A DNA stretch of 15,524 nt, taken from a virus. Taxonomy: Duplodnaviria > Heunggongvirae > Uroviricota > Caudoviricetes. Of the stretch, positions 6,202-15,524 are shown piece by piece (the stretch's first letter is position 1; every line of letters starts with the position of its first letter). Position numbers and translations under genes: made by a program. The stretch lies in the IMG/VR virus record IMGVR_UViG_2645727555_000007, positions 1-15,524 of that record. One strand, given 5' to 3'. The notes beneath the pieces are model-generated. The model worked only from the letters and a program-made list of their open reading frames with translations, was not told the DNA's origin and made no database searches.

Positions 6202-6696
6202 ATGAGTATGGTTGCCAGAACCAACCCCGGCCCCGCAGAGGACGACATCACCGATACCGATGATGGTGATACCCGTATTTCAGCGGGCGCATTCTGGCCG
6301 GATATTGTGCTGCGTGAGCTGCGTCTGGCGATACGACTGCCGGGCCGTGTGACCACCTCCCGCCTGCTGCATACCGCCACCGGGGCCGTGGCACACGTTA
6401 CCCGCGAGCTGAAAGCGTGGCAGCAGGAACAGCAGGCGGCTGGCCATCAGACGCTGGCCGATGTTCCGGCACCCGTAATTAACGGAGAAAGCGTCAATCT
6501 CTGGCACTGGCGCAATGCTGTTTATACCGCCACGCGCGCCCTGATTCTGGAGCGTTATCGTGATGCAGACACAACGGACAAGGGCGACCGCCGGGCGGAC
6601 GCTCTGGATATACAGACATCGGATTTGTGGCGTGATGTGAGCTGGGCCATCTCTGACATTCTGTGCCGCCCGCGAATCTTTGCGGAGTTGTGCTGA
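6202..6696 (+). CDS. L: Head completion/stabilisation protein, P2 gpL-like
   Basis: About 164 aa from the ATG at 6202, which has AGGAG 8 nt upstream (the ORF track start at 6193 is a GTG). Position and size match P2 gpL; its stop overlaps the X start. Confidence 0.8.
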   Translation: MSMVARTNPGPAEDDITDTDDGDTRISAGAFWPDIVLRELRLAIRLPGRVTTSRLLHTATGAVAHVTRELKAWQQEQQAAGHQTLADVPAPVINGESVNLWHWRNAVYTATRALILERYRDADTTDKGDRRADALDIQTSDLWRDVSWAISDILCRPRIFAELC

Positions 6697-6896
6697 TGAA
6701 AGTGAAGGCACTGGAAGGCGACACCGTGGATTCGCTCTGTTTCCGGTACTACGGCACGACGCAGGGCGTCACCGAAAAGGTGCTGGATGCCAACCCCGGA
6801 CTCTGTCAGCAGGTATTTCTGGACGCCGGGCAGGAAGTGGAGATGCCGGAGCCGGAGAAGAAGAAACGAGAAATGATTCAGTTGTGGGGGGAGTAG
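6696..6896 (+). CDS. X: Tail protein X (LysM-like), P2 gpX-like
   Basis: 66-aa product MKVKALEGDTVDSLCFRYYGTTQGV...ANPGL...LWGE, clearly alignable to P2 gpX as I recall it. The track ORF 6663..6896 shares this frame with an upstream alternative start. Confidence 0.8.
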   Translation: MKVKALEGDTVDSLCFRYYGTTQGVTEKVLDANPGLCQQVFLDAGQEVEMPEPEKKKREMIQLWGE

Positions 6897-6898
6897 CA

Positions 6899-7222
6899 GT
6901 GAGCACCATTCAAACAGGGATCACAGAGCAGGTTATTGCGTGGCTCTTTGACCACCTGCCAACGGTGTATGCAGTAGGCGCGGCGGTCAGCATTTCCGCG
7001 CTGATGAGTCTTTATGACGGACGAACACTGGTTCAGACCGTAACGGGATCGCTGGCGTGCGGCGTTCTTGCCATGGCCGTGGCCGGGTCGTTGCGCTTCT
7101 TCGGGTTTCCTGAAGATGCCGTGACGTTTATCGGCGCATCAATCGGTTTTATGGGCGCAGAGAAAGCACGCGACAAGGTTATTGCGGCCTTTAATCGCAG
7201 GGTGAAGGAGAAGGACGAATGA
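6899..7222 (+). CDS. Holin (multi-TM small membrane protein)
   Basis: GTG start with a strong GGGGGAG site 7 nt upstream. The 107-aa product has 2-3 hydrophobic segments and a charged C-terminus (KEKDE), and sits immediately upstream of the endolysin. The track ORF from 6680 is an upstream read-through of the same frame. Confidence 0.65.
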   Translation: MSTIQTGITEQVIAWLFDHLPTVYAVGAAVSISALMSLYDGRTLVQTVTGSLACGVLAMAVAGSLRFFGFPEDAVTFIGASIGFMGAEKARDKVIAAFNRRVKEKDE

Positions 7223-7611
7223 GCAACACATTTAAATTCAGCAGCCGGAGCGAAAAGAATTTGCAGGGCGTAAATCCTGATCTGGTGAAAGTGACCCGAC
7301 GGGCACTGGAAATCTCGGAAGTGGATTTTGGTATCACCGAAGGGTTGCGCAGCCGTTACCGCCAGAAACAACTTGTGGCCACAGGTAAGAGCCAGACCAT
7401 GAACAGCCGCCACCTTACGGGGCATGCCGTGGATGTTGTGGCTTATATCGGCAGCCAGGTGTCATGGGAATGGCCGCTGTACGAAAAAATCGCAGCAGCA
7501 TTCAGACAGGCCAGCCGGGAACTGAATATTCCGGTGGAATGGGGCGGCGACTGGAAGACCCTGAAAGACGGACCGCATTTTCAGTTACCACACGGAGCCT
7601 ATCCGGCATGA
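7219..7611 (+). CDS. Endolysin, peptidase M15 (VanY/L-Ala-D-Glu peptidase)-like
   Basis: 130-aa protein with SRHLTGHAVDV and a later DGPHFQ His, fitting the H-x6-D...H zinc-peptidase pattern of M15-family phage endolysins. ATGA overlap with the holin stop. Confidence 0.7.
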   Translation: MSNTFKFSSRSEKNLQGVNPDLVKVTRRALEISEVDFGITEGLRSRYRQKQLVATGKSQTMNSRHLTGHAVDVVAYIGSQVSWEWPLYEKIAAAFRQASRELNIPVEWGGDWKTLKDGPHFQLPHGAYPA

Positions 7612-8015
7612 AGCTCTGGCCCACGCTGGGCGTCGCTTTCCTTCTGATTGCCGCATGGGGAACATCCATGCGTCTGTCGTGGTCGCTGGGCTGGGAGAAC
7701 GCCAGAAACGAAGCGCAGGCCAGCGCTCTGAAAAGTACCGTCGACACTCTGAATATCATCAGCACCGGGGTACAGGATATGCAGCAGGTGCTGGCGCAAC
7801 TCCGCGTGGAAAATCAACAGCGAAATCAGGACGGAGAGGCCAGACGTGAACAGCTACGCAACGATATTGCAAAAGATGAATGCGCCCACGCTTTGCCTGA
7901 CGCTCGTTTTACTGACAGGTTGCGCAGACACGCAGAACGCGCCACGGCCAGCGCCGTCAGTCCGGCTTATACCGCAGACGCTGACCATACCGGTAACGCC
8001 TCCCCCCTTCCCTGA
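7608..8015 (+). CDS. i-spanin (Rz/LysB-like inner-membrane spanin)
   Basis: ATG at 7608 overlaps the endolysin stop. The product has an N-terminal TM segment (LWPTLGVAFLLIAAWG) followed by a charged, coiled-coil-like periplasmic region. The track ORF from 7464 is an in-frame upstream extension. Confidence 0.7.
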   Translation: MKLWPTLGVAFLLIAAWGTSMRLSWSLGWENARNEAQASALKSTVDTLNIISTGVQDMQQVLAQLRVENQQRNQDGEARREQLRNDIAKDECAHALPDARFTDRLRRHAERATASAVSPAYTADADHTGNASPLP

Positions 8016-8166
8016 CACTCCCACATGGGGAAATCTCGGTATATGGGGCGACCGCCTTCTGGATGCACTGGAAACCTGTAACGCGGATAAACGGGCCATT
8101 GAATTACTGGAACAGCGCAGGCTGCAAAGACTGAACAACGAGGACAACAACCATGCTGAAAACTGA
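7846..8166 (+). CDS. o-spanin (Rz1/LysC-like outer-membrane lipoprotein), overlapping the i-spanin in another frame
   Basis: Signal peptide with lipobox LLTGC, a Pro-rich mature region and a C-terminal Cys. It starts inside the i-spanin gene in a different frame and extends beyond it. The start is GTG 7846 (GGAGAGG upstream) or ATG 7876. Confidence 0.7.
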   Translation: MNSYATILQKMNAPTLCLTLVLLTGCADTQNAPRPAPSVRLIPQTLTIPVTPPPFPDTPTWGNLGIWGDRLLDALETCNADKRAIELLEQRRLQRLNNEDNNHAEN

Positions 8167-8620
8167 TTCCCTGCGTGAAGCCATGACCCGTTCATGCCGA
8201 TGGTGTCAGGCTAACCCGGAAAAATTCACCATTTTCGTGGAGAGCGGCAACATTGAAACGACAGGAGAAACCCCATCGTTTGTTTACCGCTATCAGATGG
8301 TGATGTTTGTCATGGATTACGCCGGGGAGCTGGACGACCTCACGCTGCCGCTGCTGGCGTGGTTATCAGAAAATCAGCCACAGTTGTTGCTCAATCCGGA
8401 GCGTAATCAGGACATCAAATTCTCCGCCGTTATCAATGACGATGACAGCGCCGATCTCCTGTTTACGCTCCCTCTGCGGGAACGCGTTCGCATCACGCGC
8501 AGCAGTCAGGGCACGCCGCAGGCAGAACACCTGCCGGAGCCAAAACCCCGCCTGCCATCTTCCGAAGGCGACTGGTCGCATGTATTCCAGGATGTGACGT
8601 GGGGTGAAAGCGATGGATAA
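8153..8620 (+). CDS. R: Tail completion protein, P2 gpR-like
   Basis: 155-aa ORF, the same length as P2 gpR, in the conserved position after the lysis genes. Confidence 0.8.
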   Translation: MLKTDSLREAMTRSCRWCQANPEKFTIFVESGNIETTGETPSFVYRYQMVMFVMDYAGELDDLTLPLLAWLSENQPQLLLNPERNQDIKFSAVINDDDSADLLFTLPLRERVRITRSSQGTPQAEHLPEPKPRLPSSEGDWSHVFQDVTWGESDG

Positions 8621-9248
8621 GGCATTCACCCGCGTGGATGAAACCTTTGAGGCCATCCGCGACAGCCTGAATCAGCAGGCCATCAATAACATTGCCAGAA
8701 AGCTGGCACAGGATTTACGCCGCGCCCAGCAGGCGCGCATCCGGTCACAGAAAGCGCCGGACGGGACCGCGTGGACACCACGCAGACGCCGCGTAACCCG
8801 GATACAGGAACGCATTCGCTTTATCTGGAATAACGAAGCACGCACGCTGAAAAACTGGCATCACGACACGGGGAAATACGGGCGAACCATTACCGGGTGG
8901 GATGAGGATAAAAATAATATCCGCACGTTTTACCGGGATGACATCGACCGTTTTCTGGAAATACGCACCCGGCGCATCAACCAGGACAGCACAAAGCACG
9001 TCCCCATGTTCGTAAAACTGCGCACCTCCCGCTACCTGAAAGCCCGTGCGGATGCTTCCGGTGTGACGGTGGGTTACAGCGGCGTGGCCGCACGTATTGC
9101 ACGCGTTCATCAGTTCGGTGAGCGCGATCAGGTTGCGCCGGGCATTTTCACCGATTACCCGGTACGTGAGCTGTTGGGCATCAGTCAGGCAGATGAACGC
9201 CTGATTTATAACACGGTGCTGGGCCGGATTGCGGAGGCTGTACGGTGA
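8613..9248 (+). CDS. S: Tail completion / virion morphogenesis protein, P2 gpS-like (longer than canonical)
   Basis: Positional equivalent of gpS, with the ATG at 8613 overlapping the R stop (alternative GTG at 8604). About 211 aa against about 150 for P2 gpS as I recall it. Its stop overlaps the V start. Confidence 0.7.
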   Translation: MDKAFTRVDETFEAIRDSLNQQAINNIARKLAQDLRRAQQARIRSQKAPDGTAWTPRRRRVTRIQERIRFIWNNEARTLKNWHHDTGKYGRTITGWDEDKNNIRTFYRDDIDRFLEIRTRRINQDSTKHVPMFVKLRTSRYLKARADASGVTVGYSGVAARIARVHQFGERDQVAPGIFTDYPVRELLGISQADERLIYNTVLGRIAEAVR

Positions 9249-9826
9249 GCGCAGAACTCATGCGACTGCTGAGCAATATCATCCGCACCGGGATCATCTC
9301 TGAAGTTGATGAGAAGTCCTGGCGCGTGCGCGTTCGCAGCGGCGAACTGGAAACAGGCTGGCTGCGCTGGAACACCACGCGCGCGGGAGCCTTCAATGTG
9401 TGGCTGCCGCCATCACCAGGCGAACAGGTGGTAATTGCCTGCATTGGCGGCAATCCGGAAACCGCCATGATAATTGGCAGCCTGTGGAGTGATGCCAATC
9501 CGGCCCCCGGCAAAAGCCTGAAAGAAATCGTGATCAGCGCGCCGGACGGCGCGGTGTTCCGCTACGACGCGGACGCAGGCGCACTGAGCGCCAGCGGCAT
9601 GAAAACAGCCACCCTGCAGGCATCCGTCAGCGTGACACTGGATACGCCCGTCGTGGAATGCACAGACCTTCTGAGAACAGCGACGATTGACGTCACAAAA
9701 GGAGGAAAGATGAGCGGCAATATCACGCACAGCGGCGGCGATTTCACCTCAAACGGCATCACAGTGCATACGCATAAACACGGTGGCGTTAAAGGTGGCA
9801 GCGATTCGACGGGAGGCCCGCAGTGA
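9245..9826 (+). CDS. V: Baseplate spike/assembly protein, P2 gpV-like
   Basis: GTG start with GGAGG 7 nt upstream. N-terminal NIIRTGIISEVD and C-terminal HTHKHGG...GG match gpV as I recall it. Confidence 0.85.
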   Translation: MSAELMRLLSNIIRTGIISEVDEKSWRVRVRSGELETGWLRWNTTRAGAFNVWLPPSPGEQVVIACIGGNPETAMIIGSLWSDANPAPGKSLKEIVISAPDGAVFRYDADAGALSASGMKTATLQASVSVTLDTPVVECTDLLRTATIDVTKGGKMSGNITHSGGDFTSNGITVHTHKHGGVKGGSDSTGGPQ

Positions 9827-10173
9827 CAACCCGCTACACAGGAATGAATCCGGACGGAACGGGAAACCTGAACGATATGGAGCACCTGAAACAGTCAGTC
9901 AGGGACATCCTGACCACCCCGCTGGCAAGCCGGGTTATGCGACGGGAATATGGCAGCCTTGTGCCCGATTTAATTGACGAACCCATGAATAACACCACAC
10001 GTCTGCAATGCATGAGTGCTGCCGTGATTGCGCTGACACGATGGGAACCCCGCATTGCCCTGGATGCCATCGACGTTGTCTGGAAGGCAGGAGGCCGCGC
10101 CAGGGTGACGCTGTCAGGTACTGTCATGCAGACCATGCAGAATGTTGAATTAACCATCACGCTGAGAGAGTAA
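9823..10173 (+). CDS. W: Baseplate wedge protein, P2 gpW-like (gp25 family)
   Basis: 116 aa (P2 gpW is about 115 aa). GTG start overlapping the V stop, with GGGAGG upstream; conserved position. Confidence 0.85.
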   Translation: MTTRYTGMNPDGTGNLNDMEHLKQSVRDILTTPLASRVMRREYGSLVPDLIDEPMNNTTRLQCMSAAVIALTRWEPRIALDAIDVVWKAGGRARVTLSGTVMQTMQNVELTITLRE

Positions 10174-10176
10174 ATC

Positions 10177-11073
10177 ATGCCCGCCGTTGACCTTTCACAG
10201 TTACCGGACCCCGCCATCATCGCGGAGCCTGACTTTGAGGCAATTCTGGCTGACACAAAGGCCATGATGATTGCGGCTTATCCCGCCGAACAACGTGAAG
10301 CCGTCTCCGCCGCGCTGGAGCTGGAATCGGAACCTCTGAACGTTATCGCCCAGACAACAGCGTTTCGTGAAATGCTGTTACGCCAGCGGGTCAATGAGGG
10401 TGCACGCGCCTGCATGTTAAGCCACAGCGCCGGGACAGACCTGGACAACCTCGCAGGCAATATGAACACAAAGCGCCTGGTTATCACTCCGGCAACGGAT
10501 ACCACCGACGCGGTGATGGAAAGCGACACCTCGCTGAGACTGCGGGCGCAACGGGCGTACGACGGCCTGAGTGTTGCTGGCCCGTCAGGTGCATACGAGT
10601 ATTTTGCCCGCAGCGCCAGCGGTCTGGTGCGTGATGCGCGGGCTATCAGTCCGTCTCCGGCAAATGTGACGGTTTCCATCCTGTCCACTGAAGGCGACGG
10701 CACAGCAACGGAGGCGTTGCTTAATACCGTTCGCGCCGTTCTGAATGCAGAGGATACCCGCCCGGTGGCCGACCGCCTGACCGTACAGAGTGCCAGAATC
10801 GTGACATGGCGGCTGAATGCAAAACTGTACTTTTACCCCGGCCCGGAATCCGAACCTATTCTGGCTGCGGCGGAATCGTCGTTCAGGAAGTGGCTGGCTG
10901 ACCAGGGGCTTATCGGTCAGGACGTGGCGTTGTCCGCCATTGCTGCCGCACTGCATGTGCACGGTGTGCAACGCGTGGAGATAACCGAACCCACACAGAA
11001 TATGGCCATCAGCGACATACAGGCGGCGCGCTGTGAGTCGTTCACCATCAGCGAAGGTGGGCGCAATGAGTAA
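10177..11073 (+). CDS. J: Baseplate assembly protein, P2 gpJ-like
   Basis: 298 aa (P2 gpJ is about 302 aa); conserved position between W and I. Confidence 0.9.
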   Translation: MPAVDLSQLPDPAIIAEPDFEAILADTKAMMIAAYPAEQREAVSAALELESEPLNVIAQTTAFREMLLRQRVNEGARACMLSHSAGTDLDNLAGNMNTKRLVITPATDTTDAVMESDTSLRLRAQRAYDGLSVAGPSGAYEYFARSASGLVRDARAISPSPANVTVSILSTEGDGTATEALLNTVRAVLNAEDTRPVADRLTVQSARIVTWRLNAKLYFYPGPESEPILAAAESSFRKWLADQGLIGQDVALSAIAAALHVHGVQRVEITEPTQNMAISDIQAARCESFTISEGGRNE

Positions 11074-11596
11074 TTCGCTGTTACCACCATCAGCCAGCAA
11101 TTTCATGCGTTGCGCCGAAGCTGTCGGAGCGCGCATTACAAACATCCCGGTAGACCTCAACACACTGTGGTCACCAGATACCTGCCCGGTGCATCTGCTG
11201 CCTTATCTCGCCTGGGCATTTTCCGTTGACCGCTGGGATCGCAACTGGCCGGAAGAGACAAAGCGACAGGTTATTCGTGATGCATGGCTGATACACCGAC
11301 ACAAAGGGACCATCAGCGCACTGCGCCGGGCCATTGAGCCGCTGGGATACCTCATTCGCGTGTCTGAGTGGTGGGAGTTCGGCGGAGAACCGGGAACATT
11401 TACCGTTGAAGTCGGCACGCTGGACAGTGGCGTGACGGAGGAAATGTATCTGGAAATGGAGCGGTTGATTGCTGATGCCCGCCCGGTCAGCCGCCACATG
11501 ACAGGGCTGAATATCATTCAGGAAATTCCGGGGGATATTTTCGCAGCGGCGGCAACTTATGACGGTGAAGTCATTACCATTTATCCGGACGATTAA
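11066..11596 (+). CDS. I: Baseplate/tail protein, P2 gpI-like
   Basis: The ATG at 11066 overlaps the J stop and gives 176 aa, the same as P2 gpI. The track ORF from 11033 is an upstream extension of the same frame. Confidence 0.85.
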
Positions 11597-11598
11597 GC

Positions 11599-14148
11599 AT
11601 GAGTACCACAACACGTAAATTTAAAACCGTTATCACCGATACGGGTGCAAAAAAATTAGCTCAGGCAGCCGCGCCAGATGGTAAGCCTGTCCGCCTGACT
11701 CATATGGCCGTGGGCGACGGTGGCGGCACGTTGCCCACACCAGACAGTAAGCAGACCCGTCTGGTGCATGAGGTGTGGCGACATACTGTTAATCGCGTCA
11801 TCCTGGACGCAACACATCAGAACCGCATTATTGCGGAGCTGGTTATTCCTCCTGAAACGGGCGGATTCTGGATCCGGGAAATTGGTGTATTTGATGAGCA
11901 CGGCGATTTAATCGCGGTGGGCAATACTGCCGAAAGTTACAAGCCAGCCGTTGCCGAAGGGTCCGGTCGTGCACAAACATTTCGCACCATTCTGACCGTA
12001 TCCAGCACTGCCACCGTGGCGCTTACCGTGGATAACACCATGGTGATGGCCACAGTGGATTACGTGGATGACAAACTGAAAGAGCATGAACAGTCACGAC
12101 GTCACCCGGACGCCTCGCTGACCGCAAAAGGCTTTGTTCAACTCAGTAGCGCCACTAACAGCGTGTCTGAAACGCAGGCTGCAACGCCGAAAGCAGTAAA
12201 GGCCGCGTATGATCTTGCTAACGGTAAATATACTGCGCAGGATGCCACCACAGCGCGAAAAGGCCTTGTCCAGCTCAGTAGCGCCACCAACAGCACGTCT
12301 GAAACGCTCGCCGCAACACCAAAGGCAGTAAAAGCAGCCTATGACAATGCTGAGAAACGTCTGCAGAAAGACCAGAACGGTGGCGATATTCCAGATAAGG
12401 GCACTTTCCTGAACAACATTAACGCGGTCAGTAAAACAGACTTTGCTGATAAGCGTGGTATGCGTTATGTGCGGGTTAACGCTCCTGCAGGTGCAATATC
12501 TGGAAAATATTACCCTGTTGTTGTTATGCGTTCTGCTGGCTCAGTAAGCGAACTGGCATCAAGGGTCATTATCACCACGGCAACGCGAGCCGCAGGCGAT
12601 CCGATGAATAACTGCGAGTTTAACGGATTTGTTATGCCTGGTGGCTGGACTGACAGGGGGAGTTATGCTTATGGAATGTTCTGGCAATATCAAAACAATG
12701 AACGAGCCATCCACTCAATAATGATGAGTAATAAGGGCGATGATTTGCGCTCTGTGTTCTATGTTGATGGCGCTGCTTTCCCTGTTTTTGCGTTTATTGA
12801 AGATGGCCTGTCAATATCCGCACCTGGTGCTGATCTCGTTGTTAATGATACGACCTATAAGTTTGGGGCAACAAATCCGGCGACTGAATGTATCGCGGCG
12901 GACGTTATCCTTGATTTTAAGAGTGGCCGTGGTTTTTATGAGTCCCATTCGTTAATCGTTAACGATAACTTGTCGTGCAAAAAACTTTTTGCCACAGACG
13001 AAATTGTAGCGCGTGGTGGTAATCAGATTCGAATGATAGGTGGGGAGTATGGTGCATTATGGCGTAATGATGGCGCTAAAACTTACCTGCTGCTTACCAA
13101 TCAAGGTGATGTTTATGGTGGCTGGAATACATTAAGACCGTTTGCTATTGATAACGCAACCGGCGAACTGGTTATTGGAACCAAACTGTCCGCAAGTCTG
13201 AACGGTAATGCATTAACAGCAACAAAGCTGCAAACGCCAAGACGGGTTTCTGGTGTTGAGTTTGATGGTTCCAAAGATATTACTTTAACCGCCGCGCATG
13301 TGGCTGCTTTTGCCAGAAGGGCAACGGATACATATGCCGATGCGGATGGTGGCGTTCCCTGGAATGCCGAATCAGGCGCTTACAATGTCACCCGCTCTGG
13401 CGACAGCTATATTCTGGTTAACTTCTATACCGGAGTCGGAAGTTGCCGGACCCTGCAGATGAAGGCGCATTACAGAAATGGAGGTCTGTTCTACCGTTCC
13501 TCAAGAGATGGCTATGGTTTTGAGGAAGGCTGGGCAGAAGTTTATACCTCGAAAAATCTTCCACCAGAAAGCTACCCAGTTGGCGCACCAATCCCGTGGC
13601 CATCAGATACCGTTCCGTCTGGTTATGTCCTGATGCAGGGGCAGACTTTTGACAAATCTGCCTACCCGAAACTTGCAGTGGCTTATCCGTCAGGCGTTAT
13701 TCCTGATATGCGTGGCTGGACGATTAAGGGCAAGCCCGCCAGTGGTCGTGCCGTATTGTCTCAGGAACAGGACGGCATTAAATCGCACACCCACAGCGCC
13801 AGCGCATCCAGTACTAATTTGGGGACGAAAACCACATCGTCGTTTGATTACGGAACTAAATCCACAAATAACACCGGAGCACATACACACAACTTTGCTT
13901 ACAACAATACTTCAGCATACGCAGAAACTCCCGGTACCGGTGGTGGAATGCATGCAAGTAACACAAGCAAGACAGCAAGTAATCGTGTATTAAGCGCAGG
14001 AGCTCATGCTCACACAGTAGCAATAGGTGCGCATACACATACGCTCGCTATTGGTTCGCATACACACACCATTACCATTGCCGCTTATGGCAACGCGGAA
14101 AACACCGTAAAAAACATCGCATTTAACTATATTGTGAGGCTTGCATAA
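11599..14148 (+). CDS. H: Tail fibre protein (gpH position): P2-like N-terminus with a lambda Stf / T4 gp37-like His-repeat receptor-binding tip
   Basis: 849 aa. The N-terminal part is of the conserved P2-family H type; the middle has two tandem Phage_fiber_2-type repeats; the C-terminus has HxH motifs and ends ...[18 protein letters not shown], which I recall as the C-terminus of T4 gp37 and lambda Stf. Confidence 0.9.
12124..12345 (+). repeat. Two about 90-bp in-frame direct repeats (period 132 bp) inside H
   Basis: 12124-12213 and 12256-12345 encode (A/R)KG(F/L)VQLSSATNS(V/T)SET(Q/L)[12 protein letters not shown] with only a few nucleotide differences, seen directly. Confidence 0.8.
13999..14079 (+). 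repeat. Three tandem 27-bp coding repeats encoding G(A/S)H(A/T)HT(V/L/I)(A/T)I HxH units in the tail-fibre tip
   Basis: GAHAHTVAI / GAHTHTLAI / GSHTHTITI read in frame. Further HxH motifs lie upstream (KSHTHSA near 13781, GAHTHNF near 13876). Confidence 0.8.
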
Positions 14149-14747
14149 TGGCATTCAGAATGAGTGAACAACCACGAACCATAAAAATTTATAATCTGCT
14201 GGCCGGAACCAATGAATTTATTGGTGAAGGTGATACATACATTCCACCTCATACAGGTCTACCTGCAAATAGTACTGATATTGCTCCGCCAGATATTCCA
14301 GCTGGCTTCGTGGCTATTTTCAACAGTGATGAGGCGTCCTGGCATCTCGTTGAAGATCATCGTGGTAAAACGGTTTATGACGTGGCTTCCGGCGACGCGT
14401 TATTTATTTCTGAACTGGGTCCGTTACCGGAAAATGTTACCTGGTTGTCGCCGGAAGGGGAATATCAGAAGTGGAACGGCATAGCCTGGGTGAAGGATAC
14501 GGAAGCAGAAAAACTGTTCCGGAAACGGGAGGCGGAAGAAACAAAAAACAGCCTCATGCAGGTAGCCAGTGAGCATATTGCGCCGCTTCAGGATGCTGCA
14601 GATCTGGAAATTGCAACGGAGGAAGAAATCTCGTTGCTGGAAGCATGGAAAAAGTATCGGGTATTGCTGAACCGTGTTGATACATCAAGTGCACCGGATA
14701 TTGAGTGGCCTGCTTCCCCAGTGGAATCAAGGAGTAAACAAGCATAA
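14148..14747 (+). CDS. tfa: Tail fibre assembly chaperone, lambda Tfa-like (gpG position)
   Basis: 199 aa beginning [29 protein letters not shown]..., which I recall as near-identical to the lambda Tfa N-terminus. ATG overlaps the H stop. Confidence 0.9.
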
Positions 14748-14840
14748 GGCTTTCATTTCAAACCATTGTAGTCCAGTTTTTTGTATAGTACCCTGCTCAT
14801 TTCGAATGACATGAGTGATTTGGAATTTCAGGGTGCCATT
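14748..14840 (+). promoter_or_regulatory. AT-rich intergenic region upstream of the cargo ORF (possible own promoter)
   Basis: Composition drops sharply here. A TATAGT -10-like hexamer sits at 14785-14790 and AGGG at 14830-14833 precedes the ATG at 14841. No convincing -35 at standard spacing. Confidence 0.2.
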
Positions 14841-15488
14841 ATGAATGTTATTTCATCATTAAAACAGCTTAACAGACAGCGAAATATTAAAACAAAAAAG
14901 ATAAAGACGAAGGCCAGACTGGCATTTCTAAAAATGCGATACAGAAGGAAAACATCATTACAGCCGGATAGTTATAAAACAGTGTGCATTTTCATGCACA
15001 TGCAGGCCATTGGTGACGGCATCGTTACCTCAGGGTTTATTAAACAACTTCAAGAATCCGGCATGGTGGTATATGTGATAGCACCTCCAAGAGTATCATT
15101 CCTCTTTACTGATATTGTTGGCGTGGATGCCTTTATTTCTTACGAGAAAAATAAATTTAACGAACTAAAAGCAAAGATAAAAAAACTGAATGTAGATCTT
15201 GTTGTTGACTTCTCAAATTTTGATAACACAGCGATAACCAGATTGCAAACACTACATTTACTTAAACCTAAACACTCTATCTGTTTTAATCATCCTGCCG
15301 TAACTATTTTTGATACAAATATAATCGATAATCGTTCCATTCACTCATCTGAAAGAATGAAAAAAGTTTTATCTTTACTAAAGATAAAAAATAATGATTA
15401 CGCTGCAGCGCTTAATTTTGACAACAAAATATATCGAGTAGGCAGCCTGACGGCTGCGGCTTGTCATGGTCTGCAATTACCGTTATAA
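14841..15488 (+). CDS. AT-rich cargo ORF at the P2 Z/fun-equivalent position: GT9 (heptosyltransferase-family)-like N-terminal Rossmann domain protein, function unknown
   Basis: ORF track 14781..15488 starts at TTG; the ATG at 14841 with AGGG upstream is the more likely start (about 215 aa). Roughly one-third GC by eye against over half in the structural genes. A Lys/Arg-rich N-terminal stretch is followed by KTVCIFMHMQAIGDGIVTSGFIKQLQESGMVVYVIAPP...NVDLVVDF, matching the GD...LK..FP...DxLV pattern of GT9 N-terminal domains (WaaC/WaaQ-like) from memory. Confidence 0.5.
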   Translation: MNVISSLKQLNRQRNIKTKKIKTKARLAFLKMRYRRKTSLQPDSYKTVCIFMHMQAIGDGIVTSGFIKQLQESGMVVYVIAPPRVSFLFTDIVGVDAFISYEKNKFNELKAKIKKLNVDLVVDFSNFDNTAITRLQTLHLLKPKHSICFNHPAVTIFDTNIIDNRSIHSSERMKKVLSLLKIKNNDYAAALNFDNKIYRVGSLTAAACHGLQLPL

Positions 15489-15524
15489 AAACAGGCAATG
15501 TCATTGTCTTTCAGGTGGTTATAT

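Follow-up and report, generated by a model that had tools for sequence, protein, structure and literature searches.

The glycosyltransferase-like open reading frame (ORF) that ends 36 nt short of the end of an Escherichia coli contig is very probably what remains, as a 5' half, of an accessory (“moron”) gene of a prophage, knocked out by insertion of an IS91 element. The window (i.e., the whole stretch of DNA that we analysed) is the entire 15,524-bp contig DF970300.1 of E. coli draft assembly GCA_001297725.1, on which the late genes of a P2-like prophage are found, including those for portal, terminase, capsid, lysis, baseplate and tail fibre. Read from ATG 14841 on the plus strand, the ORF encodes 215 aa and stops at TAA 15486–15488; a 93-nt spacer separates it from the tail fibre assembly gene. 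The part of the ORF that belongs to a glycosyltransferase family 9 (GT9) gene has a GC content of 0.33–0.39, against 0.45–0.51 for the flanking phage genes, and a scan for consensus promoters upstream of the ORF found no plus-strand site. The features of the tail fibre and GT9 region, with their positions in the window, are as follows:

11599–14148, plus strand: P2-type tail fibre gene, 849 aa (Pfam)
14148–14747, plus strand: tail fibre assembly gene (tfa, G), directly upstream of the GT9 ORF (Pfam; matches across 11599–14747 are Phage_tail_fib, Phage_fiber_2, Collar and Caudo_TAP)
14830–14843, plus strand: Shine-Dalgarno (SD)-like AGGGTG at 14830–14835, 5-nt spacer and ATG 14841 (read from the sequence)
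14841–15434, plus strand: codons 1–198 of a WaaU-like GT9 gene, the 5' half of its 392 codons (colinear with the intact gene at L001:6142–6735)
14847–14939, plus strand: predicted basic N-terminal helix, residues 3–33 (AF2 model; conserved in the WaaU-like subfamily)
15012–15017, plus strand: GD motif, G58-D59 (invariant in a 34-sequence alignment; aligns with the GD of WaaU and WaaQ)
15435–15488, plus strand: end of the ORF contributed by the IS, RVGSLTAAACHGLQLPL (17 residues unrelated to the enzyme) with TAA (translation compared with the intact protein)

When positions 14700–15524 were compared by megablast with 5,426 complete E. coli genomes, the matches always stopped near query position 735–739; they were annotated as “glycosyltransferase family 9 protein” and lay downstream of a tail-fibre-assembly gene. 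The best match was found in E. coli MB06101, where, within a P2-like prophage, an intact gene of 1,179 nt (392 aa; WP_001594315.1) separates tfa from the tail genes. In a pairwise alignment the window follows this intact gene to 15434 and is unrelated to it from 15435 onwards. The 594 nt of 14841–15434 contain a single mismatch, which is synonymous (position 15023, third base of a Gly codon). A match as close as this is far more than chance would give, and that the retained half has diverged so little from the intact allele indicates a recent insertion. At the level of protein, the window ORF switches to its 17-residue tail where the intact protein continues ...KIYEPANIV, so that codons 1–198, which span the N-terminal helix and the complete, acceptor-side N-terminal Rossmann-like domain, are all that is left of the enzyme.

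A preliminary description of this DNA, made from the letters alone, had taken the ORF for half of an enzyme from which the C-terminal domain was missing, and this is borne out by our comparisons: tblastn of the intact 392-aa homologue against the window recovered only residues 1–205, at 14841–15455, and in all frames of the window it found nothing of the C-terminal domain past 15455. The same search answers two further points of that description, namely whether a continuation lies in another frame downstream (none was found in the window) and whether a full-length GT9 frame could be recovered by correcting a single indel. We rejected such a repair, since only 36 nt follow the stop codon, all of them IS91, and tblastn gave no continuation. 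Of the family motifs, the window copy keeps GD alone and has lost the D-T/S-x-x-x-H donor-site motif. Given that the C-terminal donor-sugar-binding domain is lost at residue 198, the product encoded in the window cannot be an active transferase. Searches of the 215-aa fragment against Pfam and NCBIfam gave no match, in the case of Pfam because the part of the protein that matches PF01075 (residues 205–312) lies past the break. The truncated protein is identical to RefSeq WP_077819431.1, which is labelled “hypothetical protein” and is recorded from one contig only.

The sequence beyond the break has the anatomy of an IS91 left end, for which the window shows two features:

15435–15524, plus strand: IS91 left (terIS) end, starting with CGAG (CTCG on the bottom strand), 88 nt followed by the start of orf121
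15442–15457, no strand assigned: terIS subterminal palindrome GCAGCC-TGAC-GGCTGC (centroid fold of the bottom strand)

In IS91, orf121 is followed by tnpA, the stop codon of the first overlapping the start codon of the second, and the left end measures 89 bp (PMC13181058); terIS is cleaved at 5'-CTCG beside a subterminal palindrome, no target-site duplication is made, and the target sequence 5'-GTTC or 5'-CTTG abuts the oriIS end (PMC13181058). In the window, the bottom strand ends ...CCTACTCG at 15435, the palindrome forms a 6-bp hairpin that sits 7 nt from the IS terminus in the centroid fold, and of the orf121 start codon only the A and T, at 15523–15524, are present before the contig stops. 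In the E. coli genomes we found 412 copies of bases 15435–15524, of which plasmids carry 387, and the left boundary |CGAGTAGGCAGCC was invariant in 6 independent contexts. Elsewhere (L020, 1551–1916 and from 1916 onwards, and L003), the shared end is followed by a 121-codon orf121, the stop codon of which overlaps the start of a gene annotated as “IS91 family transposase”; this overlap was seen in copies that had not been hit by other elements, the window itself stopping at the ATG of orf121. The element thus has in common with IS91 the anatomy of its left end, i.e., the CTCG terminus, the subterminal hairpin, the distance to orf121 and the overlap of the orf121 stop with the tnpA start, and with only 90 nt of it in the window it is likened to IS91 by this anatomy and not by identity to the reference X17114.

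Among the copies of this IS91 variant that we examined none was complete, all being interrupted or frameshifted. Its right end could nevertheless be read in two natural copies, where it ends ...TTCCTATCG and is followed by GAAC or CGAG 2 nt past the last shared base. For these two copies to obey the target rule, the IS must run on for 2 nt after the last shared base, with one mismatch between the copies, and the right end is then written ...TTTTAATTCCTATCG(A/T)T. Two other identities were considered for the sequence at 15435–15524 and rejected. An IS3-family identity was suggested by the RefSeq label under the match, but the label belongs to a flanking remnant which the element had entered. 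The left end of an IS66/ISCro1 element was suggested by the IS66/ISCro1 genes that follow some copies of the sequence; in locus L006 the IS66 inverted repeat (GTAA...) starts ~450 nt downstream, and we therefore regard IS66 as a secondary insertion into or beside orf121.

The empty site in the intact allele agrees with the target preference of IS91. The allele reads ATATAT|GAACCAGC at the break, meaning that GAAC (GTTC on the other strand) stands exactly at the break, in codons 199–200; just distal of the break the intact gene reads GAACCAGCAAATATTG... / GAACCAGCAAATATTGTTGC, followed by the remainder of the gene and by gpU. A GTTC so placed lies on the side where the oriIS end of an inserted IS91 would have to be, and by our own simple estimate the odds of finding GAAC or CAAG after an arbitrary junction are ~2/256. 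From this perfect fit to the target rule we infer a simple insertion, the right junction of which lies outside the window. Specifically, IS91 would have entered by its rolling-circle mechanism beside the minus-strand GTTC (i.e., at codon 199), with its orf121/terIS end facing the 5' half of the gene and, presumably, the 3' half of the gene placed beyond it. Translation from ATG 14841 would then run through 198 native codons and 17 IS codons to the stop. Short-read assemblies break in repeats, and a break of this assembly in the repeated IS would explain why the contig stops 90 nt into IS91. The same gene has been hit independently in strain CH468, by an ISKpn26 (IS5-family) insertion at ~nt 715, where both halves of the gene flank the IS; this locus probably shows what the locus of the window strain looks like.

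An alternative that we consider unlikely is an IS91-associated deletion or rearrangement, in which the junction of gene and IS at 15435 is genuine but the 3' half has been lost or moved, for example through one-ended transposition or through recombination of IS91 copies with one another. The window ends inside IS91 and the far side of the element falls outside the contig, while relatives of the window strain carry plasmid copies of IS91 and one-ended transposition accounts for 18–53% of IS91 events in assays (PMC13181058), all of which would be compatible with a lost or displaced 3' half. The break nevertheless falls at the canonical insertion point, with GAAC immediately distal and in the right orientation to the terIS end, and the retained half shows no decay, which favours simple insertion of IS91. 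Exact-pattern scans for the gene/IS junction in genome contigs and viral contigs gave no match, nor did a search of a phage collection with the junction region; a search with the C-terminal half found a single cluster, made up of partial proteins that other assemblies encode on contigs starting inside the gene.

We regard it as highly improbable that the cell carries an intact gene to which the IS91 end was misjoined during assembly. The join does lie close to where a short-read contig ends, at a distance of 90 nt, and breaks around residues 190–212 of this A/T-rich gene are seen in many other draft assemblies too; those assemblies, however, end in gene sequence and not in an IS, and a chimeric join is unlikely to begin both at a GTTC target site and precisely at the CTCG terminus of IS91.

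The nature of the interrupted enzyme was established from its intact homologue, which, on its modelled fold, is a complete two-domain GT-B enzyme of family GT9 and belongs to the WaaU-like branch. The intact protein passes the Pfam model PF01075 (score 27.0 bits, gathering cut-off 22; residues 205–312). We aligned it with homologues in 34 clusters (E. coli, Providencia spp., Orbus and metagenomes; 334–403 aa, 38–89% identity) and used the alignment to build an AlphaFold2 (AF2) model, which has a pLDDT of 90, a pTM of 0.86 and two Rossmann-like domains. In this model a helix at residues 3–33 (pLDDT 82–89) precedes the N-terminal Rossmann-like domain (~45–180), which is followed by the C-terminal Rossmann-like domain (~196–335, with its first strand starting at 214) and by a C-terminal helix at 353–365. 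The top matches of the model in a Foldseek search of the PDB were the GT9 enzymes Veillonella 3TOV, WaaC and WaaF (E 1e-13 to 1e-10; TM 0.55–0.72). The GT9-like character that the preliminary description had assigned to the ORF is thus confirmed, and the possibility it raised that the similarity might be spurious can be set aside.

Similarity to solved GT9 structures was weak at the level of sequence: a PDB search with the single protein returned only spurious RRM matches, and a profile search reached WaaC at E 0.07, which made the fold comparison and hhalign necessary. The alignment against full-length WaaC, WaaQ and WaaF that had been proposed earlier was run with hhalign, with WaaU added, and it showed that WaaU is the closest of the four K-12 proteins (E 7.9e-22 over 307 columns, probability 99.4%), followed by WaaQ (E 4.8e-7, 263 columns), WaaC (E 1.7e-5, 48 columns) and WaaF (E 1.2e-3, 34 columns). 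BLASTP of the intact protein against WaaU gave 23% identity and an E of 1e-17, and the leader is included in this alignment as well as in the one made with hhalign. Residues G58, D59, D291, T292 and H296 are invariant across the 34 sequences, and the last three align with D261, T262 and H266 of WaaC. D59 of the GD motif is the putative catalytic base of GT9 enzymes, and D-T/S-x-x-x-H would be the donor-site motif. The NCBIfam equivalogs RfaQ and heptosyltransferase I were matched far below their cut-offs, which means that the protein is not one of those, and a protein heptosyltransferase of the TibC/Aah type is unlikely (TibC ranks 33rd, with a TM of 0.42). In PHROGs the family is phrog_36326, annotated as “unknown function”.

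GT-B enzymes usually have a C-terminal helix that packs back on the N-domain. The preliminary description had also entertained a co-opted Rossmann-domain fragment, and although residues 1–198 would, on the model, form a complete folding unit (helix and N-domain) and the start codon and SD-like site are kept, we find it barely credible that the ORF encodes a stand-alone N-terminal domain with a basic leader and a non-catalytic role (e.g., LPS binding or a dominant-negative effect), given that the truncation was made by a mobile element and adds 17 IS-encoded residues at the end, that only one contig is on record with precisely this protein, that 34 of the 34 family clusters are full length, and that the predicted C-terminal helix at 353–365, which we assume to be packed on the N-domain, is lost here. 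The truncation being the result of an IS91 insertion, and neither a natural short form nor the product of an indel, co-option is left without support; the other suggestion made in the same place, a pseudogene remnant, was essentially right, as the gene is cut by IS91 at 15434/15435.

WaaC, WaaF and GT9 enzymes of the 3TOV type have GD near the N-terminus and carry no leader. The ORF had accordingly been described as having an atypical basic N-terminal extension, of which the observation holds and the adjective does not. The Lys/Arg-rich stretch is real (residues 11–37 of the 215-aa product, ahead of the GD at 58–59), and a leader of ~45 residues before the first beta-strand is conserved across the 34 clusters, down to 38% identity, with N11, R12, N15, K19, K22 and R35 conserved at 90% or more. 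K-12 WaaU, which starts MRLGTFHKKKRFYINKIKINFLSFLFRNK..., likewise has a basic leader of ~45 aa and GD at residues 53–54, and residues 24 onward of our leader align with the WaaU leader from WaaU residue 15. Given that WaaU has the same basic leader, the extension is a trait of the WaaU-like GT9 branch and not an oddity of the prophage gene. The PHROG 36326 profile starts at M52, suggesting that its members were called without the leader. The conserved basic face of the helix points to a role in binding, and the helix probably assists the enzyme in binding to the membrane or to its anionic acceptor, LPS.

The start codon, which had been left undecided, can be fixed by comparison with homologues. 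The in-frame candidates are TTG 14781, ATG 14811, ATG 14841 and ATG 14934; the first three had been listed correctly, and the fourth, placed earlier at 14932, actually occupies 14934–14936. RefSeq starts the intact gene at the ATG equivalent to 14841, and all aligned homologues but one begin within a few residues of that position. Together with the SD-like AGGGTG 5 nt upstream, the starts of the homologues identify ATG 14841 as the start.

Among characterised enzymes the closest counterpart is therefore WaaU (RfaK, LPS heptosyltransferase IV), with which the intact protein has in common the GT9 family, the two-domain architecture, the basic leader of ~45 residues and a GD near residue 55. It differs from WaaU in sequence (~23% identity) and in being encoded in a prophage outside the waa operon, and the copy in the window is in addition disrupted. 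Of WaaU and its counterpart WaaK, the GlcNAc transferase of the R2 and Salmonella cores, the comparison covered WaaU, and the likeness to WaaK is drawn through it. With the heptosyltransferases I–III (WaaC, WaaF and WaaQ) and with 3TOV the protein shares the GT-B fold, and its VDT..H motif aligns to WaaC; the sequence similarity to WaaC, WaaF and WaaQ is marginal (E 5e-7 to 1e-3), and WaaQ differs further in having GD near its N-terminus, without a leader.

We found the gene in 49 of the 5,426 complete E. coli genomes, always on the chromosome, and it was full length in 48 of the 49 (the exception being CH468). By comparison, the P2-like sequence at the left end of the contig occurs in 1142 genomes, and the GT9 gene is an accessory (moron) gene of P2-like prophages. 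Among deposited E. coli phage genomes, none carries it. More distant relatives lie in two kinds of neighbourhood, the first of which is LPS or polysaccharide gene clusters. A homologue of 54% identity (P0009) takes an outer-core position in a canonical waa core operon, where it follows GT4, Kdo-kinase-family, GT4 and two GT8 genes and precedes waaA-coaD-mutM-rpmGB. Orbus-type homologues are found in LPS clusters near lapAB, with GT2, a second GT9 and sulfatase-family genes (the last possibly phosphoethanolamine transferases), and one homologue adjoins a polysaccharide gene cluster. The second kind of neighbourhood is phage DNA: relatives in Providencia stuartii and P. alcalifaciens stand directly after tail fibre/Tfa genes in prophages with Pam3/E217-type baseplates, a P. 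rettgeri relative, likewise directly after tail fibre/Tfa genes, is paired with a GT2 gene and adjoins the integrase in a prophage with a Mu-type baseplate, and one relative follows the portal gene in a phage contig.

In K-12 it is WaaU that attaches the fourth heptose, at the third glucose of the outer core, and in the R2 core a GlcNAc side branch is attached by WaaK; these terminal side-branch sugars matter for O-antigen ligation (PMC13293308). The waa-operon and tail-fibre-adjacent contexts of the relatives suggest that the family modifies the LPS outer core, and by analogy with WaaU and WaaK the intact enzyme probably adds heptose or GlcNAc to the outer core of the lysogen's LPS. On balance we favour, by a modest degree of belief, the view that it is a prophage-borne outer-core glycosyltransferase for lysogenic conversion, which would alter a receptor or the attachment site of O-antigen and which the window strain would have lost.

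Phage systems of the gtrABC type modify O-antigen in the periplasm via undecaprenyl-linked sugars. With these systems and the O-acetyltransferases of P22-, Sf6- and Kapi1-type phages, our gene has in common that it is an accessory gene of a prophage and encodes an LPS-type glycosyltransferase, with a foreign GC content and a position beside receptor-binding genes. Unlike gtrABC-type enzymes, a WaaU-like GT9 is a nucleotide-sugar enzyme of the cytoplasmic face and is expected to act on the core. The intact family may represent an uncharacterised class of lysogenic-conversion enzyme, a suggestion to which we give slightly less than even odds: a cytoplasmic WaaU-like GT9 that remodels the outer core and not the O-antigen, and that moves together with tail-fibre and tail-fibre-assembly modules, as one cassette, between unrelated lineages of myoviruses. 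We searched the literature for a prophage GT9 or heptosyltransferase that had been characterised, and no relevant paper came up. If the suggestion is true, a prophage could alter the receptor or the O-antigen ligation site used by related phages, and the window allele would be a natural loss-of-function control.

The finding in the window is an ordinary one, i.e., an insertional knockout, and matters little by itself. Its practical consequence is that where half an enzyme is found at a contig end, the IS junction should be checked first, and that WP_077819431.1 can now be read as an IS91-truncated GT9 fragment. The PHROG 36326 gene, which is widespread and unstudied, now finds its place in the WaaU-like outer-core branch, and we offer core-level lysogenic conversion linked to tail-fibre modules as a hypothesis for it. 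The lineages in which we saw the tail-fibre-linked gene were P2-type in E. coli and Pam3/E217-type and Mu-type in Providencia.

The prophage GT9 gene was found to be independently disrupted on the chromosome of E. coli CH468, where an ISKpn26 element (IS5 family) lies at approximately nucleotide 715 of the gene (locus L024, 3501-5879). In RefSeq the two resulting pieces are labelled differently, the 5′ piece as "hypothetical protein" and the 3′ piece as "glycosyltransferase family 9 protein".

Many other draft assemblies have contigs that end within this gene, mostly in the following stretch:

A-rich stretch of the GT9 gene at the common contig breaks, approximately residues 190-212: AAAATATATGAACCAGCAAATATTG...GAAAAACAAAAAA

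The fragment set considered here comprised the proteins P0035, P0039-P0042, P0044, P0046 and P0048 together with the genomic loci L018 and L019. Some of the fragment ends overlap (one N-terminal piece extends to R209 and one C-terminal piece begins at A190), and 126 C-terminal fragments form a single cluster. The contig ends in these other drafts resemble assembly breaks and not junctions with an IS. At the other end of the window's own contig, positions 1-420 are ordinary P2-like sequence adjoining the portal gene; among 5,426 E. coli genomes, 1,142 have this sequence, in up to four copies each. A repeat may likewise account for the break at this left end.

The closest intact allele of the GT9 gene belongs to a P2-like prophage of E. 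coli MB06101 which itself carries a deletion that joins its head-completion gene with a tail-gene 3′ end (L001, 4228-5449), and the counterpart of window 6524-13242 is therefore absent there. The GT9 gene is nevertheless still intact in this deleted prophage, and an MB06101 plasmid bears the same IS91 end as the window at 100% identity. All examined copies of this IS91 variant, on ETEC-type and other plasmids (loci L002, L003/L004, L006, L020, L022 and L023), are damaged: some by IS3 or IS66/ISCro1 insertions within orf121 or tnpA, others by a frameshifted or truncated tnpA.

As for the genes surrounding GT9, the tail fibre, tfa and GT9 genes are encoded on one strand and the tail block (gpU, tape measure, gpE, tube and sheath) on the other in both the MB06101 prophage (L001, 7417-12735) and the prophage at L018 (647-6222), which places GT9 at a point of convergent transcription. 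Elsewhere, the WaaU-like GT9 gene is repeatedly adjoined by a GT2 glycosyltransferase gene of approximately 325 aa (loci L013, 6001-8118; L010, 8001-10111; L027, 3099-5243), and this pairing was found in a P. rettgeri prophage as well as in Orbus-type chromosomal LPS clusters. Such recurrence suggests that WaaU-like GT9 and GT2 constitute a two-enzyme module in some lineages.

Upstream of GT9, window 13243-14747, i.e., the 3′ end of the P2-type tail fibre gene and tfa, has approximately 94% DNA identity to the phage lambda stf/tfa region (phage records H36-H50). The segment is a mosaic receptor-binding module common to the myovirus prophage and lambdoid phages. Among the phage records, MW057783.1 (H49), labelled "Campylobacter phage", matches the tail-fibre/tfa segment at 93.7% with coordinates identical to those of lambda stf/tfa. 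Two further records with this label (MG065691.1 and MG065686.1, both 174 kb; H118 and H119) contain an unannotated ORF matching residues 24-339 of the intact GT9 protein at 23% identity, a span and identity equal to those of K-12 WaaU. All three "Campylobacter phage" records may hold E. coli or lambda DNA.
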